Source of the DNA: an uncultured Clostridia bacterium
GTDB lineage: Bacteria; Bacillota; Clostridia; Peptostreptococcales; Anaerovoracaceae
Direction: 5' to 3'
DNA: 64,000 bases
NCBI GenBank assembly: GCA_938049335.1
Contig: CALIYX010000009.1
Span: forward strand, 127,258-191,257
Positions 17,143 to 55,521 of this stretch are shown here, one piece after another. The notes below the pieces were generated by a model. It did no database searches and was not told where the DNA came from. It worked only from the letters and a program-made list of their open reading frames with translations. Made by a program: the position numbers and the translations under genes. Every line of letters starts with the position of its first letter. The first letter of the stretch is position 1.

Positions 17143-17144
17143 GA

Positions 17145-17420: not shown

Positions 17421-17430
17421 ACGCTCTCCT

Positions 17431-21699: not shown

Positions 21700-21708
21700 T
21701 GTTCCTTC

Positions 21709-28073: not shown

Positions 28074-28217
28074 CTAGTTCTTCTTCTCGCACTCCTGGTT
28101 AGCTACACCACATGAAGTCTTGCAAGCTGACTGGCATGATGTCTGGCACTCACCACAGCCGCCGTCCTTTAGGCTGTCCTTAAGATCTCTTGTCTCTATA
28201 GTCTTGATTCTCTTCAT
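28074..28217 (-). CDS. SCIFF precursor peptide (six cysteines in forty-five residues)
   Basis: I translated it from the minus strand as MKRIKTIETRDLKDSLKDGGCGECQTSCQSACKTSCGVANQECEKKN, 47 aa with 6 Cys. It carries the classic SCIFF motif GGCGECQTSCQSACKTSC. It is absent from the ORF track, which is cut off at 60 aa. Confidence 0.85.
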   Translation of the reverse strand: MKRIKTIETRDLKDSLKDGGCGECQTSCQSACKTSCGVANQECEKKN

Positions 28218-33484: not shown

Positions 33485-34822
33485 TTATTTATAGTAGCTT
33501 TCTGCAAGCTGTGTTAGTTCTGCAAACCTTGTATAGTATTTGCCTGGGCAAGCTGTTGGAACTATATCTCTATGACCGATTATAGGCTTCTTTCCGTACA
33601 TCTTCCAAAGATTTGCTATCAGTCTAGCCGTTGTATCAAAGTCACCATCTGTCATTTCAGGTCTGCACTCGATTCCTATGGTTCTTAGGTTGTAGTTCCA
33701 GTTTCCTGCATGCCAAGCTGTATCGTTTGGATTTACTATGCACTCAACTCTGCCGCCCTGCACAACATAGTGAGCTGAAGAATCTCCATTCATTCTGCAA
33801 AGCCAGCAAACTACTCCTGAGAAAGACTGTCCCTCATGTCCCCAGTGATGAATTACTATATAGTCTATTGGTTTTTCTGCTCTTCCGATGTTATAGTTAG
33901 GGCTCTGCCTTATGCCAAAGTCTATTCCATCAAAGTTAATATCGTCTCTAACTGCCCCGTCAGGTCCAACAAAGTACTTTGTTGCTCCAAAATGAAGGAA
34001 CTGGTTTGTGTAAATCTCGCCATCTTCATTAGAGAAATACCTCTTGCCATTTTGCTCTATCCACTGCGCTTTTCTGATAAACTCTCCAGTTTCATCAGCA
34101 TTATAGCTGTGATTGTTTGGCGCTTTGAAAACTCCAGTCATGGCTGCTCCATCTTTACCCATATAGTATCTATGATAGCCAAATTTAATAAACTGGTTTA
34201 CGTAGAGAACGCCCTCGGCATTAGAATAATAGTACTTTCCACCCTTCTCTATCCACTGAGCTTTTCTCTGTATTTCTCCTGTATCACTAGCGTTATAGTA
34301 GCTTCCGTCCTTACCTATAAATATGCCCTTTTGGATTGCGCCTTCTTTGTCAACGGAATACTTCTCGCCGTCATGTGATACGAACTGTTCTTTATAGATT
34401 TTACCATCTTCGTTAGATAGGTAACTATTTCCATTCTTCTCTATCCTTTGATCATTCCTTACAATCTCGCCATTGTTATTTGCATTATAGATCTCGCCAT
34501 CTCCGGCTTTGAAGATATCCTCGCCTGCAGCACCGTCAGCATCTAAATAATATCTATATGGACCAAATGACACAAACTGGTTCTTATATATTTCGCCAGT
34601 TTCACTCGTCAGATATTTTTTGCCATCCTGCTCTATCCACTGCGCTTTATTTGCTACAAGTTCATCTGTACCGGCCCTATATATGCAAACATCATTTGTA
34701 ACGTAAAGCTCTGCTCCTAGTGCCTGTTGATTGTTTTCATCTGCATAAGCATACATTACGCCAAATACTAGCACTATGCACAAAGCAAGACCAATTCTTA
34801 ATTTCAATCTCATAATATTCAC
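33485..34822 (-). CDS. Secreted N-acetylmuramoyl-L-alanine amidase (PGRP/amidase_2) with cell-wall-binding repeats
   Basis: It has a signal peptide and about 9 repeats of the form GEIYKNQFVSFGPYRYYLDADG (CW_binding_1-like). The C-terminal amidase_2 motifs are YIVIHHWGHEG, AWHAG, GIECR and HRDIVPTACPG. Confidence 0.7.
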   Translation of the reverse strand: MNIMRLKLRIGLALCIVLVFGVMYAYADENNQQALGAELYVTNDVCIYRAGTDELVANKAQWIEQDGKKYLTSETGEIYKNQFVSFGPYRYYLDADGAAGEDIFKAGDGEIYNANNNGEIVRNDQRIEKNGNSYLSNEDGKIYKEQFVSHDGEKYSVDKEGAIQKGIFIGKDGSYYNASDTGEIQRKAQWIEKGGKYYYSNAEGVLYVNQFIKFGYHRYYMGKDGAAMTGVFKAPNNHSYNADETGEFIRKAQWIEQNGKRYFSNEDGEIYTNQFLHFGATKYFVGPDGAVRDDINFDGIDFGIRQSPNYNIGRAEKPIDYIVIHHWGHEGQSFSGVVCWLCRMNGDSSAHYVVQGGRVECIVNPNDTAWHAGNWNYNLRTIGIECRPEMTDGDFDTTARLIANLWKMYGKKPIIGHRDIVPTACPGKYYTRFAELTQLAESYYK

Positions 34823-34900: not shown

Positions 34901-35992
34901 TCAAAGTTTCTCTGATAGTATATCGCAAATTCTTTTTGATGCGTTTCCATCACCATATGGATTTACCGCCTTGCTCATCTTATCATATTCTTCAGGCTCA
35001 TTGATGAGCTTCATCATTTCTTTATATATATTATCTCCGTCGAGCCCAATGAGCTTTGTGCTACCTGCTTCTACACCTTCTGGTCTTTCAGTAGTATTTC
35101 TCATAACAAGCACAGGCTTTCCTAGCGAAGGAGCTTCCTCCTGTATTCCACCTGAGTCTGTGATGACAAAGAAGCATTTTTTGATGAAATTATGGAAATC
35201 TATCACATTTAAAGGCTCTATCAGCTTTATTCTAGGGTGATTTTCAAAAACCTCATAAGCAGCTTCTCTTACTGCGGGATTCAAATGAATCGGATATACC
35301 ACATAGAGATCAGGAACCTCGTTTACCACCTTTAGAATTGCTCTAAAAGCATTCTTCATCGAGTCGCCCAGGTTTTCCCTTCTGTGCATAGTTAGCAAAA
35401 TCATTCTGCCTTCATCTGAGATATATTCGTTTGTGTAGTTTTCCTTTACTGTTGTTTTTAGCGAATCAATAACGGTGTTTCCCGTTATGAATATGCTTTC
35501 GTCCCTTTTGCTCTCTTTTAGTAGATTTTGCCTTGCTGTCTCTGTAGGTGCAAAGTGAAAATCTGCAACTGAGCCTATGGCCTGCCTATTGAATTCCTCT
35601 GGGTAAGGTGAGTATTTGTTATATGTCCTAAGCCCTGCTTCGACATGTCCCACTGGAATCTTCAAATAAAATGCAGCAAGTGCCGCAGCAAAACTTGTCG
35701 TTGTATCTCCATGAACCAAGACAATATCTGGCTTTTCTCTCTTGAGTACGCTCTTAATTCTCTCTAGGACTAGGCCTGTGACATCAAAGAGATCTTGGTT
35801 TTGCTTCATTATTTCAAGATTGAAATTCTCTTTTACATCAAAGCATTCAAGCACCTGCTCCAGCATTTCTTTGTGCTGTCCAGTGACAAGAACAAACACT
35901 TCAAAATCATCTCTATTTTGTAGTTCCTTTATGAGTGGACACATTTTTATAGCTTCTGGTCTTGTACCAAAAACCACCACTACTTTTTTCAT
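34901..35992 (-). CDS. wecB: UDP-N-acetylglucosamine 2-epimerase (non-hydrolysing)
   Basis: The N-terminus is KVVVVFGTRPEAIKMCPLI with an HVEAGLRT motif. The start was set to the ATG after GGAGGCAGGA, so the ORF-track N-extension is treated as spurious. Confidence 0.8.
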   Translation of the reverse strand: MKKVVVVFGTRPEAIKMCPLIKELQNRDDFEVFVLVTGQHKEMLEQVLECFDVKENFNLEIMKQNQDLFDVTGLVLERIKSVLKREKPDIVLVHGDTTTSFAAALAAFYLKIPVGHVEAGLRTYNKYSPYPEEFNRQAIGSVADFHFAPTETARQNLLKESKRDESIFITGNTVIDSLKTTVKENYTNEYISDEGRMILLTMHRRENLGDSMKNAFRAILKVVNEVPDLYVVYPIHLNPAVREAAYEVFENHPRIKLIEPLNVIDFHNFIKKCFFVITDSGGIQEEAPSLGKPVLVMRNTTERPEGVEAGSTKLIGLDGDNIYKEMMKLINEPEEYDKMSKAVNPYGDGNASKRICDILSEKL

Positions 35993-36044
35993 TCCTGCCT
36001 CCTTAAGCATTGTACACTTGCTGGGTTTATTATCTGCAATCAGC

Positions 36045-37271
36045 TTACAGTGACTCGAATCCCCATTTATTATTCTTATCGATATTTCTAGTATCAAGAA
36101 CCAGTTTGCCCTTGAGTAGATCTAGATTCTGTATTATCTCATCATGAGCAACCATTATTATTACAAAATCAACATCTGCAAGGAATTTATCTAGATTATG
36201 GTACTGATTATCAACTATATCATTTTTGACCATAGGGTCATAAACCTTTAGCGGGCTTGCTAGATTCTCCTTTTGGTATTCGAGCATCTGCATTGTCGGA
36301 GAGTTTCTCACATCATCTACGTTTTCTTTATATGTGAGTCCGTAAATTCCCACTCTAGTAAAATCCTTTAGACCATTTTTCTTCATTATGTCATAAGCGC
36401 GTTTTAGAACGTACTCAGGCATGGAATCATTTATCTTACGTGCCTTGTAAATCAGTTCTGTCAAAAGTGGATATTCTCCGACTAAAAACCAAGGATCTAC
36501 AGATATGCAATGCCCACCGACACCCGGTCCTGGCGAAAGTATGTTTACCCTAGGGTGCATGTTCGATATCCTAATCACTTCGTTAACATCTACCCCGCCT
36601 TGTCTACAGATCTTTGCTAGCTCGTTTGCAAAAGCTATGTTTACATCTCTAAAGGTATTCTCAACTACCTTCGTCATCTCTGCCGTCTTAATATCGGTTA
36701 AATTGATTTCGTTCTTACAAAAGCTCTTGTAAACTTCCTTTACTCTTAGGGCTATTTCTTCGCTATCAGCTCCTACAGTTCTAGCGTTATTTTCGATTTC
36801 ATATATTATGTTTCCTGGCATAACCCTCTCAGGAGCATGTGCTAGGTTTATTTTCTTACCTGTTTTAGCAATATAATCTTCAATTATCGGTCTAACATAT
36901 TTGTCTATTGCACCCGGTGTAACAGTCGACTCTAAAACGATGATTGCATCATCTTCGGCAAATTCAAGCACGGATTTTGTTGCGTCCTCTACATATTTGC
37001 AATCGAGCTTCTTTGATACTGAATCATATGGTGTCGGTACGGTAATTATATAAAATGATGACTCAACAGGATGTGTCTTGAACTCTATTTCATTTTCAAG
37101 TGCCTTCTCTAAGAGCTCGGTCATGCCGGGTTCTTCAAATGTCACCTTTTTTTCACGCAGACTATCTATAATATCGCTCTTCACATCTGTACCGACAACT
37201 TGCTTCCCAGATTTAGCCAGTATCAGCGCAGTTGGAAGACCTATATATCCTAGCCCTATTACATTGATCAT
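36045..37271 (-). CDS. wecC: UDP-N-acetyl-D-mannosamine dehydrogenase (UDP-sugar dehydrogenase family)
   Basis: A 408-aa protein with N-terminal NAD fold GLGYIGLP and the catalytic Cys region GGHCI. It is encoded adjacent to wecB. Confidence 0.7.
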   Translation of the reverse strand: MINVIGLGYIGLPTALILAKSGKQVVGTDVKSDIIDSLREKKVTFEEPGMTELLEKALENEIEFKTHPVESSFYIITVPTPYDSVSKKLDCKYVEDATKSVLEFAEDDAIIVLESTVTPGAIDKYVRPIIEDYIAKTGKKINLAHAPERVMPGNIIYEIENNARTVGADSEEIALRVKEVYKSFCKNEINLTDIKTAEMTKVVENTFRDVNIAFANELAKICRQGGVDVNEVIRISNMHPRVNILSPGPGVGGHCISVDPWFLVGEYPLLTELIYKARKINDSMPEYVLKRAYDIMKKNGLKDFTRVGIYGLTYKENVDDVRNSPTMQMLEYQKENLASPLKVYDPMVKNDIVDNQYHNLDKFLADVDFVIIMVAHDEIIQNLDLLKGKLVLDTRNIDKNNKWGFESL

Positions 37272-37317: not shown

Positions 37318-38448
37318 TTAGAATAGTTTCTTAATCATTGACAAAAGTCTATTATTATATGCCTCAAAGGAAAACTCACTCTGCATGTTCAAAGAGTTCT
37401 CTCTAATGGCATTGTAAAATTCCTTATCGTCTCTTAGCTTCAGTATAGCTTCGCGCATCTCATCTACTGAGAGGTGATCTACGGCAAGCCCTATATTCCA
37501 CTCTTTAACAAGCTCAGACAAGTATGTGTTCTTCGCTACAATGATTGGCATACTAGCAAAGATTGATTCGTATAGCTTGTTTGGAAGAGCTATCCTTACA
37601 TTCTCCATCGATGCGTCATAAACAGAAAAAATACAGTCACATTTAGAATATAGCTCTGCAATTTCATCATCGTAGAAAAACTTACCACGGTATTCAATGA
37701 AGTCTTTTTTCTCTGCAAGCTCCTTGAAATAACTTCCGTTCTCAAAGCCTGCCATGAGAAGCTTAACCCCAGTTCCATCAAGAGCCTCAGTAAGTCTCTT
37801 AAGCTCATTTATATAACGGATTCCTCCAATATATCCAACGGTGAACGGTCTTCCCTCATTTTTCTTCCTAAGCTCTGCATAATTATTGAACAATCTACCA
37901 TCTGGCATGTTTGGCATGAATATTATTTTTTCCATATCAAAATGCCCTTCAAAGTGACCCAAAAAGCTTCTACTTGTAACAACAATTAAATCAACAAGTC
38001 TCAGCATATGAAGCTCCCTGCGTTTCAGATACTTAGACAGTAAATTGATAGGAAAACTCTTTTTCTCATCTGTGAGATAGTAATGTATATCTGGTACTTC
38101 GTAGATGATTTTAACATCAGCGTCTAGTTTGTTCTTGTACCTATATGCTATCACAAGGGTATCGTAGCTTTGCACATGGATAACCCTTGGCTTCAATTCC
38201 TTAATCAAAGCGAGTGCCTGCTTTATGAATTTCAGCGTTGGAACTATACGCTTCATAGGATTTGTTCTATTTGCAGATATATCTATCCTGTTAACAGATA
38301 CGTAGTCTCTACGAAGCTCAAGTCCTGCCTCACCATCCTTGTCCCAGTAAATCGTATGTATGTCAAAGCTGTCCTTTAGCAAATCCATACGCTTTACTAG
38401 TCTTGGAGGAAATGTGGAATTTATTAAAAATAAATATTTATCTCTCAT
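37318..38448 (-). CDS. Glycosyltransferase family 4
   Basis: A 376-aa protein with a C-terminal GT1/GT4 fold. Confidence 0.55.
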   Translation of the reverse strand: MRDKYLFLINSTFPPRLVKRMDLLKDSFDIHTIYWDKDGEAGLELRRDYVSVNRIDISANRTNPMKRIVPTLKFIKQALALIKELKPRVIHVQSYDTLVIAYRYKNKLDADVKIIYEVPDIHYYLTDEKKSFPINLLSKYLKRRELHMLRLVDLIVVTSRSFLGHFEGHFDMEKIIFMPNMPDGRLFNNYAELRKKNEGRPFTVGYIGGIRYINELKRLTEALDGTGVKLLMAGFENGSYFKELAEKKDFIEYRGKFFYDDEIAELYSKCDCIFSVYDASMENVRIALPNKLYESIFASMPIIVAKNTYLSELVKEWNIGLAVDHLSVDEMREAILKLRDDKEFYNAIRENSLNMQSEFSFEAYNNRLLSMIKKLF

Positions 38449-38482: not shown

Positions 38483-41125
38483 CTATTTCAACAGTACATC
38501 GTGCTGCTTATAGAATTCATCTATCATAAAATTGCTGTATTTTTCGTAGAAATCTTTGATTTTCTCGTCTCCGCTTTGCTCATATATCGCCTTTAGCATC
38601 ACTATGCACTTTGCAAACTTGTCATCGCTATCCAAGGCCACTAATTGCCCCTCCGATAAATGCATCAAATCGCCTGTCAAATATCCGTTTAAGTCGTATA
38701 GCGGCAATGTCCTCTTTAGCATTTCTACGCCTTTATCATAGCTCTCTTTCGCAATCTGCTTACTGCTATTTGATGCATCAAGTTGACTCCAGTCGTAAAG
38801 TCCTATGAGAACATAAAGCTGCGTATCAAGTCTATAATGTGGAGCTAGATTCGAATAATCCTCATAATAAGCGAATTTACCATCCTTGCCTAGGTAATCT
38901 GTAAATGCAGATTGTTTATCAATACTGCCATCAAAGCTTCTTAGGCATTTCTCATTTAGAAATCCAAGTGCCTTTTCCCCTGCCTCAAGATATCTCTCAT
39001 CACCAGTTAGTTTATACGCTCTTGCAAATACACTTAAGGCTCTTCCCTGTGCCTTTGCCGATACCCATCCGCTATTTATAGTGTCCTCTCTATATCTGCT
39101 ACCAAGCATCATAGGAATGGAGCCATCAGACTTTTGATGTTCCAAAAGCCAATTTGTGCAGCTTATAAATCTGTGCCTTGCTTCAGAGTTATTGTCTTCA
39201 ATTGCTTCTGTATACCATATCAAAGCATAGCTCGTAGCAAGGTCTACGTCGTACTCGAATTTATCTTCCCCTGCTATAATCTTTGGAACTCCGTTTTTGT
39301 CAAGCCTTACTCTTTGACCTACGTTCTTATCAGTCATTTCGTCTGGCTTCCAGTACGGACCCATAGCTTCATACTTGCTTTCGCTGAGTTTTTTATTATA
39401 GTAAAAGTCATCCATCTTTATGTGCATACCTCTGTTGAAGTATCTTGCATTGATGATATGCTCCTCCGGCATCAAAATCGAATACCTCTCGTCAAGCTTG
39501 TTTACGAAATAAGCCTCGTGACCAGATTCCTTTCCATCATCTGTGAAGTAATCAAAGCGATAGTAATGCCAGCCTTCATTTAGGCTTGCTAGCTCCATTT
39601 CGTATGTAAACTTTCCATCCTTGACGTCAAGCTTCTTTACTTCCTTGCCATCAAAAACAACCTTTACCTTGCTAACGCCCTTGCTAGGAATTCTTTCAAA
39701 TCTATAGCTCGCCTCCGTTTCAAATAAAGGCTTAAGCGGAAGCTGGAACTTATGTCTTACAGGGCTTGAAGTAAGCGCAGCATATGCCGCTCCTATTAGA
39801 CAAAGCAGTAATGCTATTATTGTTACTATGTACTTTTTCTTTATACTTTTCCTAGTAGCCCCTGTGATTAAAAGCTTTGATGCATAAGCGACAGATAGGG
39901 CTATTACTATCCACCAGTATGCTATACCTATGTAATTGCTAGAAGCAAATCCAACTATTACAAAAATAATATCCATAGGAATGAGCACAGCTCTTATTCT
40001 ATCTTTTTTCTCACCGCAAGCAATCATTACTGCCAGCGATAAGATGCAAATGCTTACAAAGAATATGAATATACCTAGTCCGTAGTTTGCAATTATTTCA
40101 AGCCACAGCGAGTGTGGATTGCTCAGGACATAGTTATGATCAAATGGAGCAAGAAATTTATTTACCCCGTATGGCCCGTATCCAAGTCCCTTGGCATCTC
40201 TAATTGCATGTGTAAACTCCATTATATAGGTGTTCATTCTTATATAGGCTGATCCAGTCTGAGTATTTACACCAGAAAACTGCTCGAAAACCTCGTTTCC
40301 TAGTCCTCTACCCCCTCTCTTTAGAGAAACGGTTATTATCAGCTTTTCTAGACCATAAGCGTATATAGCTCCAGCGATTAGCCATCTATATTTGACTGTC
40401 GATACAATTGAATAAATCAAAAGGCCTAAGCATATACCAAATAGGCAGATTACTGCATCATCCTTTAGAAGAAGGAACTCCATCAAAGATAATTCAATCA
40501 CATTCAGCGCATTAACATATAGCTTCTTCCCAAGCTGAGGAAAGAAAAGTGGTGAAAATAGCGCAAGACAGGCACAGTAATCGTTTTCGTTAAAGAAGAT
40601 ACCCGTCGCAACACTAGGAATGCCACTACTTGAATTAGCCACGGCTGAAACATTGTAGTAGCTTGATGTGGACAGGTGATTCCCCGTTACAATCTCAAAG
40701 ATTCCTAACAATGTCAAGGCTACTATCGATACTTTACAGAATAGGAAAATGCGATTTTCCATACCTTCCGTCTTCACGGCAAGGAGAACGCACAGTGCTA
40801 TGGAAAACTGTAAAACCATCTGAAGCAGCTCTTTAAAAGCATCCTTGTCTGTAATCGTTCCTCTTAGCAGCATTAAGGCTATGCTATATATGAACCATAC
40901 CGCCATGAGTATTACAAAAGATTTATCCAAGGATTCGAATTTCAGTTCCTTCTTTCTATATGCACGGTAGAAGAAAACGCACAAAAGTAGTGGTATCGCC
41001 ACTCTAAACAGCGTTACAACAATTCCGGCAACTCTAAAACCAAAGCCTATGCTCGCGCCAAAGAAGACAGAGAAGACTAGAGCTCCTATAAGTATGGAAT
41101 CTGTTTTCTGCTTGGATAAATTCAT
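38483..41125 (-). CDS. Fusion protein: Wzy/O-antigen-ligase-like polytopic membrane domain plus C-terminal D-glucuronyl C5-epimerase-like domain
   Basis: It is 880 aa. The first ~450 aa contain more than 10 hydrophobic helices. The C-terminal ~400 aa contain SGWVSAKAQGRALSVFARAYKLTGDERYL and YVLIGLYDWSQLD. These match the GWxSAMAQGQAIS...RAY and LIGLYDL signatures of GLCE-type uronyl C5-epimerases, recalled from memory. Confidence 0.55.
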   Translation of the reverse strand: MNLSKQKTDSILIGALVFSVFFGASIGFGFRVAGIVVTLFRVAIPLLLCVFFYRAYRKKELKFESLDKSFVILMAVWFIYSIALMLLRGTITDKDAFKELLQMVLQFSIALCVLLAVKTEGMENRIFLFCKVSIVALTLLGIFEIVTGNHLSTSSYYNVSAVANSSSGIPSVATGIFFNENDYCACLALFSPLFFPQLGKKLYVNALNVIELSLMEFLLLKDDAVICLFGICLGLLIYSIVSTVKYRWLIAGAIYAYGLEKLIITVSLKRGGRGLGNEVFEQFSGVNTQTGSAYIRMNTYIMEFTHAIRDAKGLGYGPYGVNKFLAPFDHNYVLSNPHSLWLEIIANYGLGIFIFFVSICILSLAVMIACGEKKDRIRAVLIPMDIIFVIVGFASSNYIGIAYWWIVIALSVAYASKLLITGATRKSIKKKYIVTIIALLLCLIGAAYAALTSSPVRHKFQLPLKPLFETEASYRFERIPSKGVSKVKVVFDGKEVKKLDVKDGKFTYEMELASLNEGWHYYRFDYFTDDGKESGHEAYFVNKLDERYSILMPEEHIINARYFNRGMHIKMDDFYYNKKLSESKYEAMGPYWKPDEMTDKNVGQRVRLDKNGVPKIIAGEDKFEYDVDLATSYALIWYTEAIEDNNSEARHRFISCTNWLLEHQKSDGSIPMMLGSRYREDTINSGWVSAKAQGRALSVFARAYKLTGDERYLEAGEKALGFLNEKCLRSFDGSIDKQSAFTDYLGKDGKFAYYEDYSNLAPHYRLDTQLYVLIGLYDWSQLDASNSSKQIAKESYDKGVEMLKRTLPLYDLNGYLTGDLMHLSEGQLVALDSDDKFAKCIVMLKAIYEQSGDEKIKDFYEKYSNFMIDEFYKQHDVLLK

Positions 41126-41126: not shown

Positions 41127-42569
41127 TTAACCCCTTATTTTAGCCTTGATTCTGATAAGAATCGAAAAAATATCCTTTATCGCATTCCTGTAAATTATAC
41201 AGATAAAAGCGATCGACATAGCTGTGAGCAGGGCTCTAAAAACAAGTCCTATCTCATAGTGGTTCATAAATATTGAAAGAGCTATAATAGCTACATTGCT
41301 TATTAAAAGCTTTGATATGCCGTAATCGCACGGATATACTTTCTGCGCAAATACGTAGAGCAGAATCGCCATAACAAAGTAACCTACATATGTTGTATAT
41401 GCTGCAGCCTCTGGTCCATAGCTTGGAATAAAGACTATATTCAGCACTATGTTTAGCACTGCACCAATTACATTTGCCAGCAATATATATCCAGTTTTCT
41501 TTTCAAACGATAGGCCGTATCCAACTATAACTGAGACTCCGTACATAACCTGTCCAAAGAGAAGTCCTGGAAGAAGCAGGTAAGCTGCCCCATACGCGGT
41601 ATTTGACATTACTGCAATGATTTCCTTACCCCACATAGTCACAAAGATGCATATTATCATCAAAATCATATAGTAGAATCCCAGCACTCGCTTATACTGG
41701 TATTTGGCATCCTCATCATCCTTCTTGTCAAAGGCAAATGTGGTGTATGCTGTAAATACTGCATTTGATATAATCGATAGAACAGAGCTAAATCTTGCTC
41801 CAATTCCATAGATTCCTACCTCGGCTGCCGAGAAATAGTGCAGTATGAAGTATCTATCTGAAAGGTTCAAAAACCAAGCAGCAATCGCAGTCGGAATAAT
41901 AGGAACCGAGTACTTTAGCATTTGGTTTAAAAGAGCTTTATCGTACTCCCTATAATTAAATAGCTTAGGCAAGAAAATTAGGTATGCCAGAAGCTGAAAT
42001 AGCTGTACTATCGCAGAGCTTAGTATCAAAGCAAATGCCCCTAGGTGAAGTACAGATACAAACACTATGTTTGTGCCTATCATCAAAAGCGATGCGCTTA
42101 CATTTACCATAGCAAAGAGGAACATTCGATTCTCCATCCTTGCGTGTAAAGCGTATGGCGTATACCAAAGGTTAAAGCTTATGGTTATAAGCGAAACAGC
42201 AACGAGAATTTGGTGCTTTTCGGTATGGAATAGCCAAAGAGAAATATCCTTGCTGAATATCGCTATTATAAACGGCGTTATTCCGGCAATTATGAGCGTT
42301 ATCAGTGAGGTGTTAAACACCTTGCTCTTATGCTCCTCTGTTCTCTCATCAAAGTAAAAAGCACTGAAAGCGGAGTCTAGACCTAACATAAGAAGTGGCA
42401 TAAGTATAGCCGTCACATTGGTTATAGAATCCGAAATACCAAGCTCTGTCGGTGTCAAATACTTTGTATAAAGCGGTAACAGGAAAAAATTTATCGCTTT
42501 AATCATCATATTTGCAAGCACGAGTATTGCGCTTCCTTTTATGAAATTACCAAGTTTACTATCACTCAT
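41127..42569 (-). CDS. wzx: Oligosaccharide flippase (Wzx, MOP superfamily)
   Basis: A 480-aa polytopic protein. The N-terminal LVLANMMIKAINFFLLPLYTKYL is typical of the polysaccharide biosynthesis protein family. Confidence 0.7.
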   Translation of the reverse strand: MSDSKLGNFIKGSAILVLANMMIKAINFFLLPLYTKYLTPTELGISDSITNVTAILMPLLMLGLDSAFSAFYFDERTEEHKSKVFNTSLITLIIAGITPFIIAIFSKDISLWLFHTEKHQILVAVSLITISFNLWYTPYALHARMENRMFLFAMVNVSASLLMIGTNIVFVSVLHLGAFALILSSAIVQLFQLLAYLIFLPKLFNYREYDKALLNQMLKYSVPIIPTAIAAWFLNLSDRYFILHYFSAAEVGIYGIGARFSSVLSIISNAVFTAYTTFAFDKKDDEDAKYQYKRVLGFYYMILMIICIFVTMWGKEIIAVMSNTAYGAAYLLLPGLLFGQVMYGVSVIVGYGLSFEKKTGYILLANVIGAVLNIVLNIVFIPSYGPEAAAYTTYVGYFVMAILLYVFAQKVYPCDYGISKLLISNVAIIALSIFMNHYEIGLVFRALLTAMSIAFICIIYRNAIKDIFSILIRIKAKIRG

Positions 42570-44775: not shown

Positions 44776-45681
44776 TTATTTCCTCTTCATCTCTGCAATT
44801 AATTCCTCGTGACTTCTAGCAAAGTTCCCGCTTACAGCTTCTCCCTCGCCCACTGATTTGGTAACAACAGCTCCCATATTTGCCCTGCTACCTGGGCCTA
44901 AATCAATGCCATTTCTGATAACTGCACCTAGTCCAATCCAGACATTGTCACCGATGTTACAACGACCACCTATTGTAGCGCCAGATGCGACAAGACTAAG
45001 CTTTCCAATTTTGACACCATGGGCAATATACACAAGATTATCTATGCTGCTGTAATCATCAATAATTGTATTGTCCCATGGATAAATAGCTTTATCTAAG
45101 CATACATTGTGCTGTATCTCGACATTCTTGCCTATCCTTACACCGCCGACATGCTCTACCAAAAAGCTCTCTGTTCCTTCTCCGTTTTTCTTAAACTCAA
45201 AACCAGTTCCACCGATTACAGTGCCTGCTCTAATTACCGAGTTATCTCCTATAACCGTATTTTCTTTGATCGATACAAATTCCTCTATTGTCACATTGTT
45301 TCCTATCGTAACATTCATATCCGCAATATATGCCATCTTGCTGATATTACAGCCCTCGCCTATAGTAGTCGGATGGTTTTCCCTTCTATATCCATCTGTT
45401 TTAGTCAGGTAGTTGTGTAGCGAGAAAAACACAGCTCTAGGGTATTCTGTTGCAATTACTCCATAGTTTCTGTCTTTAGACTTTAGCTCTTCTGCAACTT
45501 CCCTTTTGGTTATTAGCATTGAAATGCCATCAGGAACATTTTCGACAAAAGATATTTTTTCGGCAAATGTACACACATCTGAGCCATCATTGTAGCTGAC
45601 TAGCCCTAATGACTCCACCGGCCTTTCATCCATCACCTCAAAGGCAATTCCCATTTTTTCTAAAATCTCACTTAAAAACAT
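44776..45681 (-). CDS. LpxD-like left-handed beta-helix (hexapeptide) acyltransferase, paralog A
   Basis: A 301-aa protein with an N-terminal domain followed by hexapeptide repeats. It is paralogous to the genes at 45713-46642 and 50843-51745. Confidence 0.55.
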   Translation of the reverse strand: MFLSEILEKMGIAFEVMDERPVESLGLVSYNDGSDVCTFAEKISFVENVPDGISMLITKREVAEELKSKDRNYGVIATEYPRAVFFSLHNYLTKTDGYRRENHPTTIGEGCNISKMAYIADMNVTIGNNVTIEEFVSIKENTVIGDNSVIRAGTVIGGTGFEFKKNGEGTESFLVEHVGGVRIGKNVEIQHNVCLDKAIYPWDNTIIDDYSSIDNLVYIAHGVKIGKLSLVASGATIGGRCNIGDNVWIGLGAVIRNGIDLGPGSRANMGAVVTKSVGEGEAVSGNFARSHEELIAEMKRK

Positions 45682-45712: not shown

Positions 45713-46642
45713 TTATTTATCACCCAAAATTGACTTTAGATGCTCTATGTAGAGCTTGTGATCAATTGCAAAGTTTCCCGAAACCTGAGAATTATCAGCA
45801 ACATCCTTTGTAACTACTGCTCCCATAGAAATCTTACAATTCTTACCTACCTTAGTCATAGGCGCAATACATGACTGGACACCAACAAAAGTATTATCTC
45901 CAATCTCTGCCCAACCTCCAAATGTTATGTTTGCTGCAGCAATAACATCTTCACCAATCCAAGTATCATGGCCTACCATTATGCAATTGTCTATGGATGA
46001 ATATCGCCCTATCTTGGTTTCCCCGCCTATTACACCCTTTTGGATGCTTACATTTGTATGGATTGTCGATCCCTCATATAGGTGAACAGTTCCTGAACTA
46101 TATACAAGTTTTTTCTTTGGCCCCTCTCCATAGTAATAGAATGCAGGAGAGCCTATAACTGTGCCGCTCATTACTCTAACATTATCGTCTATGACAACGC
46201 CGTCATAAATTACAACCTGAGGATCTATGGTTACGTTATTTCCTATCCTTACATTCTTAGGTGAAATCACAGCTGATTCTGCAATATTGCAATTTTCGCC
46301 TATGACAGTATCGAAGTTAAGTTCTCTTTGTTTTGATATAGCCTCATGTGCTTGGAAGAAAACAGTTTTAGGATCATCTGATGTGCATATACCTCCATCA
46401 AATTCTTTACTTATATCCTCTGCTATGTCTTTAGGACATATTATGCAACTTACACCTGCATCCCTAACAGCCGGAAAATATTTCATAGACATAATGTATG
46501 AGATGGTTTTGAGGCTTTCATCAAATCTGAGTCCTGAAAGCATGACAGTCTCGAACTCGCCATCATTAACCACTTCAATTTTTTCATCTATAACACTGTT
46601 TAATTCTGATAATTTCATGTTTACCTCCGTGGGCTTAATCAC
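45713..46642 (-). CDS. LpxD-like hexapeptide acyltransferase, paralog B
   Basis: A 309-aa protein with hexapeptide repeats. Its C-terminus is similar to paralog A (VVTK.V.....VSGNFA). Confidence 0.55.
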   Translation of the reverse strand: MIKPTEVNMKLSELNSVIDEKIEVVNDGEFETVMLSGLRFDESLKTISYIMSMKYFPAVRDAGVSCIICPKDIAEDISKEFDGGICTSDDPKTVFFQAHEAISKQRELNFDTVIGENCNIAESAVISPKNVRIGNNVTIDPQVVIYDGVVIDDNVRVMSGTVIGSPAFYYYGEGPKKKLVYSSGTVHLYEGSTIHTNVSIQKGVIGGETKIGRYSSIDNCIMVGHDTWIGEDVIAAANITFGGWAEIGDNTFVGVQSCIAPMTKVGKNCKISMGAVVTKDVADNSQVSGNFAIDHKLYIEHLKSILGDK

Positions 46643-46645: not shown

Positions 46646-47386
46646 CTAAATATAGTCTTTTTCGTTAAGGATCTCGCTAGTGTTACTTATATTTTCTTTG
46701 ATTGCCAAGTATCTATCGCGTACGCTAGAGTCAATTATCTTTTTTAGGGCATCTCCTATTGATATTTCTTTCTCGTAATACCAAAGCGGATGAACTAGCA
46801 TTTGAATCTTATTAAACTTCTTTTCTGCGATTATACCATCGACATCTTCTCTCCAGCGCCTTCTGCTATCGGAGACATATTTGATATCTCCATCAAAAAA
46901 GACCTTGTCATAGGCATTTATTATTCCATCGGTCTTTATGTTCATATCGAGTGTAATCTTGTCAGGTCTGTGCATTGACATAAATCTCACCGGTTCCCCT
47001 ATGATATCCGATAGGATCTTCGCCTCCTGCGTAATAGCTTTGCCGTAGTCAAAACTCCTCCTATCAGTTTCAGAACAGTAGACTGTATCATCAAAGTGTA
47101 AGCCGACATTATGGCCTAATCTAACAAGTTCTTTAATCAAATGCCTCTCTCTATTTCCTCCAATATTATAGAAGTTTGTAAACATCAGAATAAAATAGGT
47201 TGACGAAACACCGAGTTCATTTTCAATTTTAGCCATTTCAACAGCCTTTTCTAGCGACATGTCTACATCATGCCTTAGGATTATTTCCTGATCATATCTA
47301 TTATAGTTAGAGTAACCACAGAAAGAATATCCCTGCTTCTTTGCTAGCTCTATTATGTTTTTATACCAAGAATGGGTAAATTCCAT
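46646..47386 (-). CDS. Polysaccharide deacetylase-family protein (divergent)
   Basis: A 246-aa protein with an RHDVD motif resembling the NodB Asp-rich motif. Confidence 0.4.
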   Translation of the reverse strand: MEFTHSWYKNIIELAKKQGYSFCGYSNYNRYDQEIILRHDVDMSLEKAVEMAKIENELGVSSTYFILMFTNFYNIGGNRERHLIKELVRLGHNVGLHFDDTVYCSETDRRSFDYGKAITQEAKILSDIIGEPVRFMSMHRPDKITLDMNIKTDGIINAYDKVFFDGDIKYVSDSRRRWREDVDGIIAEKKFNKIQMLVHPLWYYEKEISIGDALKKIIDSSVRDRYLAIKENISNTSEILNEKDYI

Positions 47387-48644: not shown

Positions 48645-49763
48645 CTAGTATGCGCTCTTTACAACATCGCATATTGTCTTTAGCTCATCATCTGTTAGAT
48701 ATGGATGCATAGGAAGACTCATAACCGTCTTGCTAAGCTTTTCGCATTCAGGTAGAACTACGCCTTCATTTGCTTCTGCATATGCAGTCGACTTGTGCAT
48801 TGGAATAGGATAGTAGACCATGGCTGGAATACCATTGTCATTAAGTGTCTTAATTAGCTTTTCTCTTTCCTCAGTTGACTTTAGTTTAAGTGTAAACTGA
48901 GCCCATGATGAGCCGTAACCTTCAGGTACTACCGGTGTTTCTACTATATCCTTTAGTTCCTTTGTATAGTAATCAGCCACATGATTTCTCTTGACCAGCT
49001 CATCATCAAAGATATTCAGCTTTTCGATAAGCACTGCTCCCTGAATAGTATCAAGTCTGCTGTTTAGACCAATCTGAATGTTATCATACTTGTCTGATCC
49101 CTGTCCGTGGACATGGATGGACTTCATCTTTGCATAAAGCTCATCTGAGTTTGTGAATATCGCACCACCATCACCGTAGCACCCTAGTGGCTTAGCTGGG
49201 AAGAATGATGTACCTGCAACATCACCGAATGAGCAAGCCTTCTTTTCACCGATAGTTCCACCGAATCCTTGTGCAGCATCCTCTAGGACAAACAAGTTAT
49301 ACTTGTCAGCAATTCTTCTTATCTCATTGAAATCAGCAGGAAGTCCAAATAGATCAACGGCAATAATGCCCTTTGGCGCAAGTTTTCCTTCAGCAAGAGT
49401 CTTTTCTATGGTCTCTTCTAGAGCCTTAGGATTAATATTAAATGTATCTCTGCATGAATCTACAAATACTGGTGTTCCTCCAGCAAGGCTTACGCTTTCA
49501 CCACTTGCAAAGAATGTGAATGATGGTACGAAAACCGCATCAGTCTTCTTTACTCCATATGCCATTAGTGGAATTGTCAAAGCATCTGTACCACTTGCGC
49601 AAGCGATTACATGCTTAACTCCAACATATTCTGCAAGTCTTTTCTCAAGCTCTGCAACTTCAGCTCCTCCTATGAAGTGCTTGTGTGCAAGAATCTCCTG
49701 AATTCTCTCGTTTACCTTTGCCTCTATAACATCGTACTGTCTGTGTAGATCAATAAATTGCAT
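48645..49763 (-). CDS. DegT/DnrJ/EryC1 aminotransferase (WbpE-like, UDP-2-acetamido-3-amino sugar)
   Basis: A PLP fold with a GTDAL block and a downstream Lys region. It is paired with the adjacent Gfo/Idh/MocA oxidoreductase. Confidence 0.6.
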   Translation of the reverse strand: MQFIDLHRQYDVIEAKVNERIQEILAHKHFIGGAEVAELEKRLAEYVGVKHVIACASGTDALTIPLMAYGVKKTDAVFVPSFTFFASGESVSLAGGTPVFVDSCRDTFNINPKALEETIEKTLAEGKLAPKGIIAVDLFGLPADFNEIRRIADKYNLFVLEDAAQGFGGTIGEKKACSFGDVAGTSFFPAKPLGCYGDGGAIFTNSDELYAKMKSIHVHGQGSDKYDNIQIGLNSRLDTIQGAVLIEKLNIFDDELVKRNHVADYYTKELKDIVETPVVPEGYGSSWAQFTLKLKSTEEREKLIKTLNDNGIPAMVYYPIPMHKSTAYAEANEGVVLPECEKLSKTVMSLPMHPYLTDDELKTICDVVKSAY

Positions 49764-49817
49764 AACTACATCCCCTCCAATATCTAAATATCTAAATGAA
49801 ATATTTTTGTTCAAAAA

Positions 49818-50804
49818 CTATATTAGTTGCTTATCTGCTTCTTCTAAAATCTTTAGCATTCTAATTGCTGAGTCTGGACCTGTTACGGACTCATGATTAT
49901 TCTCTATGCAGTCTCTGAAGTGGTCAAGACTGTTGAACAGAGCATCACCTTGTTCAAGCGAAGGTATGATACCGTCCCCAATTCTTGTTTTTACAACAAA
50001 GTCTTCGTATTCCATATTCTCAACGATTTTAACATCAAAACCCTTGTCATAAACAATTAACTTGTTCAATGCATCAACATCATCGTATACTATCATCTTC
50101 TTAGTTCCTGCGATGATAATTCTTCTCTCCTTGATTGGAGATAGCCAGCTTGAGCGTAAGTTAGCTAGGAACTTATCGAATTTGATGTTAAGGAATGTTA
50201 TCGATTCTCTCTTAGTATAGATTTTCTCTCCCATAGCGCTTACTGCAATAGGCTCTGCTCCATCAGATAGATAATCTATGATAGAAAGATCGTGAACACT
50301 TAAATCCCACATTGAGCTCACATCATTCTTAAGCTGACCAAGATTTATTCTTGAGCAATCGAAATATAGTAAATCTCCAAGATCTCCACCATCAATTATT
50401 TCCTTAATTTTTTTGATCACTGGGTGGTATACCATTATGTGGTCAACATGTATTTTTAGATTCTTTTCCTTTGCAAGGTCCCTCAAAATAACAGCCTGCT
50501 CTACCGAATCTGTGAAAGGCTTTTCTACATATACATTTTTTCCTGCAAGTAGTGCCTCTTTTGCAAGCTGAAAGTGAGCGCTAGTCTCTACTGCAAGTGC
50601 TACTGCCTCTAGCTCAGGATCCTCTAGTAGGTCTCTAAAATTCTCTGTGTATGTAACGGACTCAGCATAAGTATTCTTTGCAAGCTCAATTCTCTCAGGC
50701 TTTTTGTCGCAAAGATATTTGAAATCAAAATTCTTATTTCTATAAATATTTCTCGCTACATTCGGTCCCCAGTATCCAAATCCAACTAAACCGATCTTAA
50801 CCAT
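49818..50804 (-). CDS. Gfo/Idh/MocA oxidoreductase (WbpB-like UDP-GlcNAcA 3-dehydrogenase)
   Basis: A 328-aa protein with N-terminal VGFGYWGPNVARN. Confidence 0.55.
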   Translation of the reverse strand: MVKIGLVGFGYWGPNVARNIYRNKNFDFKYLCDKKPERIELAKNTYAESVTYTENFRDLLEDPELEAVALAVETSAHFQLAKEALLAGKNVYVEKPFTDSVEQAVILRDLAKEKNLKIHVDHIMVYHPVIKKIKEIIDGGDLGDLLYFDCSRINLGQLKNDVSSMWDLSVHDLSIIDYLSDGAEPIAVSAMGEKIYTKRESITFLNIKFDKFLANLRSSWLSPIKERRIIIAGTKKMIVYDDVDALNKLIVYDKGFDVKIVENMEYEDFVVKTRIGDGIIPSLEQGDALFNSLDHFRDCIENNHESVTGPDSAIRMLKILEEADKQLI

Positions 50805-52420: not shown

Positions 52421-53047
52421 CTAATTATTTCCTGTAAAATCTTCCATAGTAGCTGCTGAATCTGAGTTTATTCCTTCTCTCTTAAGCACGCAGTATATGG
52501 TTTTAAAAAATATTGATACATCTAGTCCAAATGAAACCTTGTCGACATATTCGATATCCTTGTTGAACTTCTCAGTCCAAGTTATCGCATTTCTTCCTGA
52601 CACCTGTGCAAGTCCTGTAAGCCCTGGTCTTACATCGTGTCTTCTTTTTTGCTCATCACTATATAATGGCAAGTATTTAACTAAGAGAGGCCTCGGCCCA
52701 ACAATGGACATATCGCCCTTTAGTATATTGTAAAGCTCAGGTAGTTCATCTAGGCTTGTTGATCTAAGTTTCTTACCAAAGCTAGTTAGTCTATACTCGT
52801 CATCAAGCAGATTCCCATTCTCATCCTTGGCATCAGTCATGGTTCTAAACTTATATAGCTTAAACACCTTACCGTTTAGTCCAGGTCTTTCCTGCTTAAA
52901 GATTACAGGCCCTCCAAGCTTTACTCTTACAAGTATTGCAAGAATTATAAGTAAGGGGCTAAAGATTATTATGCTTAGCGCCGCTATGAGAAAATCCATA
53001 AACCTCTTTATTAATTTGCAGTACAATCCATTTGATTTTGATTTCAT
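52421..53047 (-). CDS. Undecaprenyl-phosphate sugar-1-phosphate transferase (PglC/WbaP C-domain family)
   Basis: A 208-aa protein with one N-terminal TM and the conserved block KLYKFRTM...DELPQL-like (DELPELYNILKGDMSIVGPRP). Confidence 0.75.
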   Translation of the reverse strand: MKSKSNGLYCKLIKRFMDFLIAALSIIIFSPLLIILAILVRVKLGGPVIFKQERPGLNGKVFKLYKFRTMTDAKDENGNLLDDEYRLTSFGKKLRSTSLDELPELYNILKGDMSIVGPRPLLVKYLPLYSDEQKRRHDVRPGLTGLAQVSGRNAITWTEKFNKDIEYVDKVSFGLDVSIFFKTIYCVLKREGINSDSAATMEDFTGNN

Positions 53048-54198: not shown

Positions 54199-55521
54199 TT
54201 AAAGAACGTCAATCTTTTCTCTATTCTTAACTTCCTTCATTGCATTCTTAGAATCGAAGATAGCCTGAGCGTTCTTCTCTATCATGTCGTAGTCAACGTT
54301 TGTGTGTGCCGCAGCAACAAATACTATATCGTAGCTAGCAATTGCTTCAGGACTTATATCAGTTAATCCGACATATTCCTTACCGTGCGCTCTGAACTTA
54401 GGAATGTATGGGTCGAAGAAATCAACATCTGCACCTTCGCGCTGCAAGATTTCGATTACATCGATAGCTGGGCTTTCTCTGTAATCATCTATATCAGCCT
54501 TGTATGCTACTCCAAGAACTAGTACCTTTGATCCATTCAAAGCTTTCTTTGCGCGATTCAAAACCTTAGCAGCTCTGTCCACGCAGTACTCTGGCATCTT
54601 GTCGTTTATCATCATTGATGCTTCGATCATAGAAGTGTGGAAGCCGAACTCTCTTGCCTTCCATGTTAGGTAGTATGGATCTAGAGGTATGCAGTGTCCA
54701 CCTAGACCTGGTCCTGGATAGAAAGCCTGGAAGCCGTATGGCTTTGTCTTAGCAGCATCAACAACCTCCCAAAGGCTGATATTCATTCTATCGCAAAGGA
54801 TAGCAAGCTCATTAACGAGTCCGATATTGATATTTCTGTATGTGTTCTCTAGAATCTTCTCCATCTCAGCTACAGCTGGTGATGAAACCTCGTGAACATC
54901 TCCTACGAGAACTTCGCGATACATCTTTGCTATAACTTCGGTTGCATCCTTGCCAATAGCTCCAACAACCTTAGGAGTATTCTTTGTCTTAAACTGCTTG
55001 TTGCCTGGATCTACTCTCTCAGGTGAAAATCCGAGGTAAAAGTCCTCTCCGCATTTAAGTCCAGAACCTTCTTCTAGGATAGGCTTGATTAGCTCCTCTG
55101 TTGTTCCAGGGTATGTTGTTGATTCTAGAACAACCATTGTGCCTGGCTTTAGGTGCTGGGAAATAGCTATTGTTGAGTCCTTAACATAGCTGATATCTGG
55201 CTGCTGGTGAGAATCAAGTGGTGTTGGAACACAGATAGCGATGAAGTCAACATCCTTAACAAATGAAAAGTCGCTTGTTGCAGAAAGCTGTCCTGCATTT
55301 ACAAGCTCTACTAAGTCGTCATCCACGACATCTCCAATGTAATTGTGTCCTTTATTAACTAGGTCAACCTTCTCCTGCTGTACATCAAAGCCTATTGTCT
55401 TAAAGCCAGCCTTTGCCTTCTCTACTGCAAGTGGAAGACCTACATATCCAAGACCTACAACGCCTACAACTATCTCGTGGTTTTCAATTTTCTTAATAAG
55501 GGTTTCTTTAATATTTTTCAC
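54199..55521 (-). CDS. UDP-N-acetyl-D-glucosamine 6-dehydrogenase (WbpA/TviB-like)
   Basis: A 440-aa protein with VGLGYVGLPLA and the catalytic region GGHCIPLDP. Confidence 0.65.
   Translation of the reverse strand: MKNIKETLIKKIENHEIVVGVVGLGYVGLPLAVEKAKAGFKTIGFDVQQEKVDLVNKGHNYIGDVVDDDLVELVNAGQLSATSDFSFVKDVDFIAICVPTPLDSHQQPDISYVKDSTIAISQHLKPGTMVVLESTTYPGTTEELIKPILEEGSGLKCGEDFYLGFSPERVDPGNKQFKTKNTPKVVGAIGKDATEVIAKMYREVLVGDVHEVSSPAVAEMEKILENTYRNINIGLVNELAILCDRMNISLWEVVDAAKTKPYGFQAFYPGPGLGGHCIPLDPYYLTWKAREFGFHTSMIEASMMINDKMPEYCVDRAAKVLNRAKKALNGSKVLVLGVAYKADIDDYRESPAIDVIEILQREGADVDFFDPYIPKFRAHGKEYVGLTDISPEAIASYDIVFVAAAHTNVDYDMIEKNAQAIFDSKNAMKEVKNREKIDVL

Follow-up and report, generated by a model that had tools for sequence, protein, structure and literature searches.

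Can the polymerase of a bacterial surface glycan carry a uronyl C5-epimerase in the same polypeptide? The question is raised by a 64,000-nucleotide (nt) stretch of DNA from an uncultured Clostridia bacterium (contig CALIYX010000009.1 of assembly GCA_938049335.1), analysed here at full length and called the window. On its minus strand, one uninterrupted open reading frame (ORF) of 880 amino acids (aa) joins a polytopic membrane domain to a domain related to heparosan D-glucuronyl C5-epimerase (GLCE). An earlier note on this DNA proposed that the protein couples polymer-level C5 epimerisation to polymerisation. The architecture and the predicted extracytoplasmic site stand, but the GLCE catalytic set does not. 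The fusion is rare and lineage-restricted, with a catalytically degenerate or remodelled epimerase-derived domain.

The relationship to GLCE is clear. The Pfam family C5-epim_C (PF06662) scored 100.3 bits over aa 679-864 (E 1.3e-28), where the cutoff is 23.3. A phmmer search of all PDB sequences returned GLCE only, with zebrafish 4PW2 at E 3.7e-19 and human 6HZZ and 6I01 at ~3e-17. Both motifs quoted in the earlier note are present in the 880-aa ORF: GWVSAKAQG...RAY (GWVSAKAQGRALSVFARAY) spans aa 686-704 and LIGLYD aa 773-778. In a full-length AlphaFold2 (AF2) run, aa 460-870 were modelled confidently (predicted local distance difference test, pLDDT, 80-97). When this model was compared with the PDB using Foldseek, GLCE structures 4PXQ, 6I01 and 6HZZ ranked first (E ~1e-10), with 27-28% identity and a root-mean-square deviation of 2.4-3.8 Å over ~225 columns. 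Next came (alpha/alpha) barrels of GH76, polysaccharide lyase 5NOK, AGE-type epimerases, GH88 and GH9; matches to GH76, 5NOK, GH88 and GH9 span E 1e-5 to 1e-2. Briefly, the module consists of an Ig-like beta-sandwich, a mixed linker and an (alpha/alpha) barrel-type domain. The beta-sandwich is common to stand-alone relatives (P0018, P0048 and others) and the linker contains conserved residues Y591, D609, G612, P614 and Y625. Hence, a GLCE-type C-terminal domain is confirmed, and the profile and fold comparisons with C5-epimerases, on which the earlier note had staked its assignment, were both significant. A significant profile match is too weak a test to establish epimerase function.

We examined the former active site by alignment. 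Passages of PMC13308652 that cite Debarnot 2019 give the catalytic residues of human GlcE as E499, Y500, N510, Y560 and Y578. A passage of PMC12561193 calls Y500, Y560 and Y578 critical for activity. This list comes from secondary citations and was cross-checked using the phmmer alignment; the 6HZZ and 6I01 chains differ, Y to F, precisely at the position mapped to Y578, which confirms the numbering. We then aligned 86 C-domains and the human fragment using MAFFT L-INS-i. The set included 16 members of the fusion clade and 69 non-fusion bacterial homologues. At the five catalytic positions the window protein has D756, Y757, D767, G818 and D835, and the earlier inference of a working GLCE-type epimerase is not supported. 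E499 is E in 60 of the 69 non-fusion homologues and D in the fusion clade (N in one member). Y500 is Y in 64 of 69 and variable in the clade (V/Y/I/N); the window protein keeps this Tyr, where most orthologues have V, I or N. Asparagine occupies position 510 in 67 of 69, and the clade has an invariant D. Y560 and Y578 are each Y in 67 of 69. The former is variable in the clade (G/S/V/E). The latter is replaced by D in all but P0008 and P0010, the two most divergent fusion members, which alone retain the equivalent Tyr. Two histidines are also replaced: H579 (H in 62 of 69) is F837 in the window protein and F in the clade (V and I once each), while H582 (H in 64 of 69) is C840 and variable (T/C/I/S). 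G511 corresponds to T768.

The independent phmmer alignment to GLCE also has no Tyr at Y560 or Y578, and aa 832-840 of the window protein contain neither Tyr nor His. Locally, the alignments are unambiguous: YYEDYS...HYRLDTQLYVLIGLYDW pairs with LYEEY...YVLNGDLFALLGLYDW, LYDLNGYLTGDLMH with YYDYYGWSSYDLLQ, and LDSD-DKFAKCIVMLKAI with FDSS-YAHFCHISLLKAI. In canonical domains, 40 columns reach a conservation of at least 85%; the fusion clade keeps 24 of them and has changed 16, the latter including all five catalytic positions, H579, H582 and G511. Judged by alignment, the GLCE catalytic residues are thus shown to be replaced in the fusion clade only. In a neighbour-joining tree this clade is monophyletic and nested within a 37-tip clade, whose other 21 members retain N510, Y560, Y578 and H579. 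Since the fusion clade is nested among canonical relatives, loss of the catalytic set is derived.

What remains is the scaffold of the cleft: W687, S689, Q693, G694, R702-A-Y704, LIGLYDW, Y810-D811 and D819-L820. The signatures GWxSAxAQG, RAY and LIGLYD, quoted earlier as signs of an epimerase, are scaffold or cleft motifs. Around the former active site, R765, D767, Q769, Y771, Y815, K836 and K839 are fixed and clade-specific, and H822 is nearly invariant. Former catalytic positions 757, 818 and 840 vary among orthologues. Because these three positions are now variable, they would argue for relaxation. The fixed new polar residues suggest that the cleft is still in use. Isoelectric point (pI) and net charge do not discriminate fusion from canonical alpha domains (mean pI 6.3 and 6.1, respectively).

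We turned to the membrane domain, for which the earlier note had claimed more than ten transmembrane (TM) helices of polymerase/ligase type. By hydropathy and the AF2 model, the N-terminal half has ~12 hydrophobic helices, within the 10-14 TM range, followed by a further helix, TM13. The fold also agrees with the claim but the Pfam score does not reach threshold: Wzy_C (PF04932) matched aa 231-356 with 21.9 bits (E 1.6e-4) against a cutoff of 31.7. Homologue P0015 likewise has only a weak precomputed Wzy_C match. Divergent Wzy proteins usually score below the Pfam threshold. The membrane domain was modelled poorly (pLDDT 30-77) in the first, full-length AF2 run. A run with aa 1-455 and an alignment of 78 stand-alone homologues fixed this (pLDDT 90.6, predicted template-modelling score 0.90). 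Foldseek identified the WaaL O-antigen ligase 7TPG_B as the sole significant PDB match (E 4.4e-7, TMq 0.54, TMt 0.60, 443 columns). The most conserved part of the protein is a large external loop, in which R296, G315, G317, P337 and H338 are invariant columns across 78 sequences of the family. E343 and G349 are also invariant in the 78 members, and an H338-x10-G349 motif is present. H-x10-G is a form of the Wzy/WaaL loop motif. The related motifs RX10G and RX15G have been described for Wzy loops (PMC12004945).

Topology was read from hydropathy and the positive-inside rule. The rule places lysine/arginine-rich loops 51-68, 371-376 and 425-432 in the cytoplasm; the last of these, RKSIKKKY, precedes TM13. 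Hence, we infer that the conserved loop at aa 267-339 faces the outside of the membrane, as does everything past TM13 (aa 453-880). This agrees with the known outside location of Wzy/WaaL catalytic loops. A GLCE-like domain so placed would be compatible with action after flipping. TM13 itself shares ancestry with the signal-anchor found at the N-terminus of stand-alone, anchored epimerase homologues.

The gene is real. The same full-length layout recurs in orthologues of 878-883 aa with 41-95% identity, which come from independent assemblies and form at least 10 sequence clusters. One orthologue (69% identity) is encoded by an isolate, [Eubacterium] infirmum NCTC12940, and another (54% identity) by a metagenome-assembled genome (MAG) of Eubacterium sp.; a protein from an [Eubacterium] sulci MAG falls within the 90% cluster of the window protein. 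An assembly or frameshift artefact was rejected because the identical layout recurs across many independent assemblies, including that of an isolate. Known members are confined to [Eubacterium] sulci/infirmum-like Anaerovoracaceae, and the host of the window is an oral anaerobe of the [Eubacterium] sulci type in that family. Compared pairwise, 10 orthologues have an average identity of 0.57 in the alpha domain, as against 0.69 in the membrane domain and 0.77 in the external loop. No truncations were found among the full-length fusion orthologues. The alpha domain is evidently not decaying and would still be under purifying selection. Public annotations of these proteins are inconsistent, ranging over 'D-glucuronyl C5-epimerase', 'O-antigen ligase and related enzymes' and 'hypothetical'.

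How rare is the union? Word-indexed searches returned 10 matches for the full protein and 11 and 2 for its halves. An exhaustive search of representatives was needed to expose the family structure. Hence, we used HMMER to compare a profile of 10 orthologues with 1.84 billion cluster representatives (E<=1e-3). Of 1746 matching proteins, only the representative P0007 spans both halves. Matches to the N-terminal half alone are Wzy-like stand-alone proteins of 430-480 aa, more than 75 in number, that cover profile positions from ~5 to 420 and end at ~415-426. Matches to the C-terminal half alone include ~450-aa proteins (P0018, P0019, P0039 and P0062) that cover positions 428-880 with a signal-anchor TM, beta-sandwich and alpha domain; in P0018, P0019 and P0039 it is residues 4-450 that do so. 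Other relatives join the GLCE-family domain to an unrelated ~300-aa multi-TM domain (P0048, P0057 and P0073; 724-763 aa), to three CWB2 wall-binding repeats (P0087; 737 aa) or to a CarboxypepD_reg domain (P0031; 583 aa). In all of these, the domains are canonical and the catalytic residues intact. A full-text literature search for Wzy with C5-epimerase gave no description of a fusion like that in the window. N-only homologues stop at the point from which C-only homologues start, and head-to-tail fusion is therefore the simplest history. We infer that a wzy gene was joined in this way to a gene for an anchored, extracytoplasmic GLCE-family enzyme; the ancestral pair is read from domain boundaries only. 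Unfused genes of the two types were not adjacent around P0015, P0016 and P0043 (N-type) or P0018 and P0019 (C-type), in a check that covered few contigs, those of C-type being short. Both unfused kinds are located in Wbp-type or uronic-acid glycan loci.

Table 1. Parts of the fusion gene and principal genes of the surrounding locus (positions in the window)
Feature	Position	Strand	Basis
Fusion ORF, complete; Wzy/WaaL-fold membrane domain and GLCE-like ectodomain	38483..41125	-	orthologues in independent assemblies
Polytopic membrane domain, aa 1-425; ~12 TM, Wzy/WaaL (GT-C-like) fold	39851..41125	-	hydropathy, AF2, Foldseek
Large loop, predicted extracytoplasmic, aa 267-339	40109..40327	-	hydropathy; identity 0.77
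TM13, aa 430-452; fusion junction	39770..39838	-	hydropathy; profile alignment
Beta-sandwich (Ig-like), predicted extracytoplasmic, aa 467-553; GWHYYRF motif	39467..39727	-	AF2 strands, pLDDT ~88-93
Mixed helix/strand linker, aa 554-626	39248..39466	-	AF2 secondary structure
(alpha/alpha) barrel-type domain, aa 627-868; homologous to GLCE C-terminal catalytic domain	38522..39247	-	PF06662, phmmer, Foldseek
Remodelled former active-site segment 1, aa 755-771 (EDYSNLAPHYRLDTQLY)	38813..38863	-	L-INS-i alignment
Remodelled former active-site segment 2, aa 810-840 (YDLNGYLTGDLMHLSEGQLVALDSDDKFAKC)	38606..38698	-	L-INS-i and phmmer alignments
Wzx-type flippase (Polysacc_synt/MatE), immediately upstream of the fusion	41127..42569	-	profile match
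GT4/GT1-type glycosyltransferase, immediately downstream of the fusion	37318..38448	-	profile match
WbpB-like (GFO/IDH/MocA) and WbpE-like (DegT) pair	48645..50804	-	profile matches
NDP-sugar 6-dehydrogenase, 440 aa; WbpA/TviB-like or WecC-like	54199..55521	-	passes only subfamily model
WecC-like dehydrogenase, 408 aa; closest to UDP-ManNAc dehydrogenase	36045-37271	-	generic NDP-sugar dehydrogenase model only
WecB UDP-GlcNAc 2-epimerase	34901-36097	-	profile match
Small PglC-like phosphoglycosyl transferase (Bac_transf); initiating enzyme of the locus	52421..53047	-	profile match

The fusion lies in a co-directional glycan locus that extends from ~34.9 to 62.5 kb on the minus strand (Table 1). 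In order of transcription, the locus begins with a GFO/IDH/MocA oxidoreductase, a PglF/CapD-like dehydratase, a glycosyltransferase (GT) of family GT4 and a 445-aa flippase-like protein. A DegT aminotransferase, the NDP-sugar 6-dehydrogenase, an Acyl_transf_3 protein, the PglC-like transferase, a PglD-like acetyltransferase and an LpxD-like left-handed beta-helix (LbH) protein follow. Next are the WbpB-like and WbpE-like genes, a second GT4, a 246-aa protein, two further LpxD-like LbH proteins and two GTs. The locus ends with Wzx, the fusion, a GT, the WecC-like dehydrogenase, WecB and a choline-binding amidase. Hence, it carries a PglC-like initiating transferase and five GTs, and 1 nt separates the stop codon of Wzx from the start codon of the fusion. 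We used hidden Markov models built from each half to scan all six-frame ORFs of the window; no other Wzy-like or GLCE-like ORF was found.

Orthologous loci retain a core order of WbpE-like gene, GT4, 246-aa ORF, GT(s), Wzx and fusion. The order Wzx-then-fusion is the same in L001, L005 and L007, of which L001 and L005 additionally keep the WbpB-like gene, LbH genes and a GT after the fusion. That downstream GT is also conserved in L006; L007 has a Polysacc_synt_2 dehydratase-like gene in its place. The DegT gene occurs in L001, L005 and L007; of these, only L007, a short contig, lacks the GFO/IDH/MocA gene. Conversely, the WecC/WecB pair is absent from all three loci and follows the fusion in this window only. 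That the fusion is set in a Wzx/Wzy-type glycan locus making N-acetyl-hexosaminuronic acids is supported. The earlier note had tied the protein to two uronic-acid donors. Both dehydrogenases are real. Each passes the generic NDP-sugar dehydrogenase model only; the 408-aa enzyme is nearest to UDP-ManNAc dehydrogenase and the 440-aa enzyme is ambiguous. The tie itself does not hold, given that WecB/WecC are lacking from the orthologous loci and the WbpB/WbpE-like genes are conserved. The latter pair is predicted to give a 3-amino / 2,3-diacetamido uronic-acid branch. On the best reading of these genes, the locus glycan would be rich in N-acetyl- or diacetamido-hexuronic acids.

Relatives of each half occupy comparable surroundings. 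The N-only homologues adjoin Wzx in Wbp-type loci, a typical Wzx-Wzy arrangement. Canonical anchored relatives of the C-terminal half adjoin flippase, WbpB/WbpE-like, uronate-dehydrogenase and AsnB-like genes (L003, L012).

Several further features of the locus were recorded. As listed, the WecB ORF has a TTG start and a 53-nt overlap with the upstream dehydrogenase. An internal codon is probably the true start, since profile matches start no earlier than aa 38-57. Within this Gram-positive glycan locus, three paralogous LbH acyltransferases of ~300 aa (44776-45681, 45713-46642 and 50843-51745, all minus strand) have LpxD (UDP-3-O-acyl-GlcN N-acyltransferase) as their best NCBIfam match, with scores of 123-174 bits that fall below cutoff. 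Their role may be N-acylation of 3-amino sugars with a group other than acetate. The 246-aa soluble protein (46646-47386, minus strand) occupies the same place, after GT4, in every fusion-containing locus (L001 3711-4451, L005 3739-4479, L007 2702-3442). It has no Pfam or NCBIfam match and nothing significant among PDB sequences. In N-only loci, unannotated genes for ~250-aa proteins lie directly upstream of the Wzy-like gene (L008) or several genes downstream (L009). The 445-aa multi-TM ORF (57028-58365, minus strand) also lacks any Pfam or NCBIfam match or significant PDB sequence; by eye, it resembles a Wzx/MOP flippase and is a possible second flippase. The locus is flanked by a CWB2-repeat cell-wall protein (62752-63996, minus strand) and an Amidase_2 protein with choline-binding repeats (33485-34822, minus strand), which is 445 aa long here and 630 aa in L005. 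Because these genes flank it, the locus may make a wall polymer that anchors proteins of the CWB2/choline-binding type.

Elsewhere in the window, a 47-aa Cys-rich SCIFF-type peptide (…GGCGECQTSCQSACKTSCGV…; 28074-28217, minus strand) is encoded directly upstream of a radical-SAM/SPASM maturase (26699-28072, minus strand). The same pair is annotated in L005 as SCIFF and Radical_SAM. A type VII secretion module (12572-22992, minus strand) includes a YukC/EssB-like protein (21709-22992), a 1422-aa FtsK/SpoIIIE EssC-like ATPase (17431-21699) and an LXG-domain toxin-like protein (15129-16835). Following these genes are three paralogous leucine-rich repeat proteins of ~255-278 aa in a low-GC stretch (31-35% GC).

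How should the fusion protein be read? The N-terminal half is, most simply and from its context, the repeat-unit Wzy polymerase of a Wzx/Wzy-dependent surface glycan locus, because it is the only candidate, follows Wzx and has the WaaL/Wzy fold. The C-terminal half is, by homology and predicted topology, the descendant of a GLCE-family enzyme that lies outside the membrane, without the canonical catalytic set but with its cleft scaffold kept. Since the canonical Tyr/Asn/His set is lost and the cleft is kept and re-decorated, C5 epimerisation of the GLCE type has most likely ceased in the ectodomain. We tentatively favour, in its place, a module binding or handling uronic-acid glycan that would serve the polymerase in chain retention, processivity, length or hand-off, a proposal that we place slightly short of probable. 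Briefly, a wzy gene would have been fused head-to-tail with a gene encoding a signal-anchor TM, beta-sandwich and (alpha/alpha) enzyme. The former signal anchor would now serve as TM13, and the ectodomain would be tethered outside, beside the conserved external loop of the polymerase. The canonical Tyr/Asn/His set would have been lost after fusion; the sugar-binding cleft would have been retained and re-decorated with new fixed polar residues. The ectodomain would hold the growing undecaprenyl diphosphate (Und-PP)-linked chain or nascent polymer and so influence processivity, chain length or hand-off. Such an outcome would resemble a pseudo-enzyme turned lectin. There are precedents: the structural role of AlgG in alginate secretion is separable from catalysis, and chi-lectins derive from chitinases.

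Several points weigh against this proposal. Fixed clade-specific residues at the former active site would equally be expected of a retooled catalytic site, and Lys, Tyr, His and Asp can act as acid/base at uronate C5 in other epimerases and lyases. The window protein keeps Y757, while P0008 and P0010 keep the equivalent of Y578. A scan of ORFs of the locus gave no co-polymerase of Wzz/CpsC type, which fits a chain-handling role but is no proof of it. Furthermore, the choice of polymerase over ligase for the N-terminal domain comes from genomic context only.

The strongest competitor, which we nonetheless think rather unlikely, is that the ectodomain is a retooled C5-epimerase. It would use residues other than those of GLCE (K836, Y815, Y771, D767 or H822), at the polymer- or lipid-linked level, and act on the chain leaving the fused polymerase, for example converting ManNAc3NAcA to L-GulNAc3NAcA. 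Homology and fold are unambiguous, the predicted location is extracytoplasmic, and the fixed clade-specific polar residues and signs of purifying selection would fit such an enzyme. The substrate class of the family also fits, because canonical relatives sit with WbpB/WbpE-like or uronate dehydrogenase genes. In addition, archaeal Agl32 performs uronyl C5-epimerisation with a non-GLCE residue set (PMC13308652). However, all three activity-critical GlcE tyrosines are absent or unconserved, and three variable positions point to relaxation rather than to a substituted precise geometry. Nor does substrate class explain the remodelling, since the canonical set persists in the closest relatives, whose loci are comparable. 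An epimerase of canonical mechanism, with the conserved Tyr/Glu, is scarcely credible. Significant Pfam and PDB matches are in its favour and, in the window protein, Y757 aligns with Y500 and E755/D756 with E498/E499. Yet Y560, Y578 and N510 have given way to G818, D835 and D767, H579 and H582 are lost, and Y757 is unconserved in orthologues; this mechanism is already contradicted at the level of sequence.

Uronate epimerases and lyases share a C5 proton-abstraction step. Hence, the ectodomain could have switched to a lyase or hydrolase that trims or releases polymer, for chain-length control or turnover. Consistent with this, Foldseek also matches GH76, 5NOK, GH88 and GH9 barrels, and three carboxylates (D756, D767 and D835) occupy former catalytic positions. 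We judge a switch of this kind very unlikely: no catalytic motif of any glycoside hydrolase or polysaccharide lyase family is specifically matched, D835 gives way to Y in P0008 and P0010, and we know of no other polymerase joined to an enzyme that would depolymerise what it makes. A different doubt concerns the N-terminal half, and is compatible with any account of the C-terminal half. As a WaaL-like ligase or O-oligosaccharyltransferase, the membrane domain could instead pass the flipped glycan to an acceptor in the form of lipid, wall or protein (CWB2/S-layer proteins, for example), with the ectodomain helping to select donor or acceptor. The only solved structural match is WaaL 7TPG, Pfam Wzy_C mixes ligases and polymerases, and a CWB2 cell-wall protein gene flanks the locus. 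However, the locus contains Wzx and no other Wzy candidate, and the N-only homologues occur in typical Wzx-Wzy arrangements. The WaaL match cannot discriminate between ligase and polymerase because, according to a 2025 review, no Wzy structure has been experimentally defined (PMC12004945), and because WaaL was the only significant PDB match. A ligase therefore seems unlikely, and we retain the polymerase assignment.

Each half comes from a known family, but the two are very rarely joined in one polypeptide. Should the ectodomain be a glycan-binding pseudo-epimerase, the protein would be a natural Wzy polymerase with a built-in chain-handling domain. It could then offer a tractable single-polypeptide system for how Wzy holds polymer, and a cautionary case for annotation. 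If it is instead a retooled epimerase, polymer-level epimerisation would be mechanically coupled to polymerisation, a new mechanism for the GLCE fold, and 2,3-diacetamido- or 2-acetamido-hexuronic acid would be epimerised in the nascent chain as it is polymerised. Anchored or CWB2-fused canonical GLCE homologues sit in clostridial Wbp-type loci, which suggests that Gram-positive anaerobes may widely epimerise hexosaminuronic acids at the polymer level and outside the membrane. Such epimerisation would be a testable source of L-configured diacetamido-uronic acids.

The fusion shares with GLCE a homologous (alpha/alpha) domain bearing the GWxSAxAQG, RAY, LIGLYD, YD and DL motifs, a beta-sandwich ahead of that domain and a location on the non-cytoplasmic side of the membrane. 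In contrast, E499, Y500, N510, Y560, Y578, H579 and H582 are replaced in the fusion clade. GLCE begins with a type-II anchor and beta-hairpin, whereas the fusion begins with a 12-TM Wzy-fold domain. Unlike GLCE, the fusion ectodomain cannot have heparosan as its substrate. AlgG, the periplasmic mannuronan C5-epimerase of alginate biosynthesis, is an analogue in function only, with a reported structural, polymer-protecting role. It is a polymer-level uronate C5-epimerase in export/polymerisation machinery; polymer-level epimerisation is noted in PMC13308652. However, AlgG has an unrelated right-handed beta-helix fold, works in a synthase-dependent pathway and is a protein separate from the polymerase.

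Polymer-level epimerisation in bacteria by the GLCE family is an existing idea. A 2011 catalogue lists many prokaryotic GLCE homologues from polysaccharide gene clusters, among them Bermanella marisrubri RED65_08024, Clostridium spp. proteins and a Gae-type protein of E. coli O112ab (Raedts 2011, PMC3068255). Together with the dozens of diverse bacterial representatives within our top 150 matches, this list indicates that the earlier description of the fold as rare in bacteria was overstated. One bacterial GLCE-family enzyme has reported activity (Raedts 2013, cited in PMC13308652). Bacterial homologues P0018, P0019 and P0039 have the same TM-anchor, beta-sandwich and alpha module as the fusion, and these nearest homologues are encoded in clostridial glycan loci of uronic-acid or Wbp type. 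Unlike the fusion, they keep the canonical EYNYYHH pattern and have no Wzy domain.

Wzy polymerases are reviewed as 10-14 TM proteins, and the review does not mention catalytic-type ectodomains (PMC12004945). Like Wzy and WaaL proteins, the fusion has a 12-TM domain with the WaaL fold, an invariant Arg and His in its external loop and an H-x10-G motif, and its gene follows wzx. It differs from the Wzy_C family in scoring below the Pfam gathering threshold. With no counterpart in the stand-alone homologues or the literature searched, it differs from Wzy and WaaL in its extra 430-aa C-terminal ectodomain.

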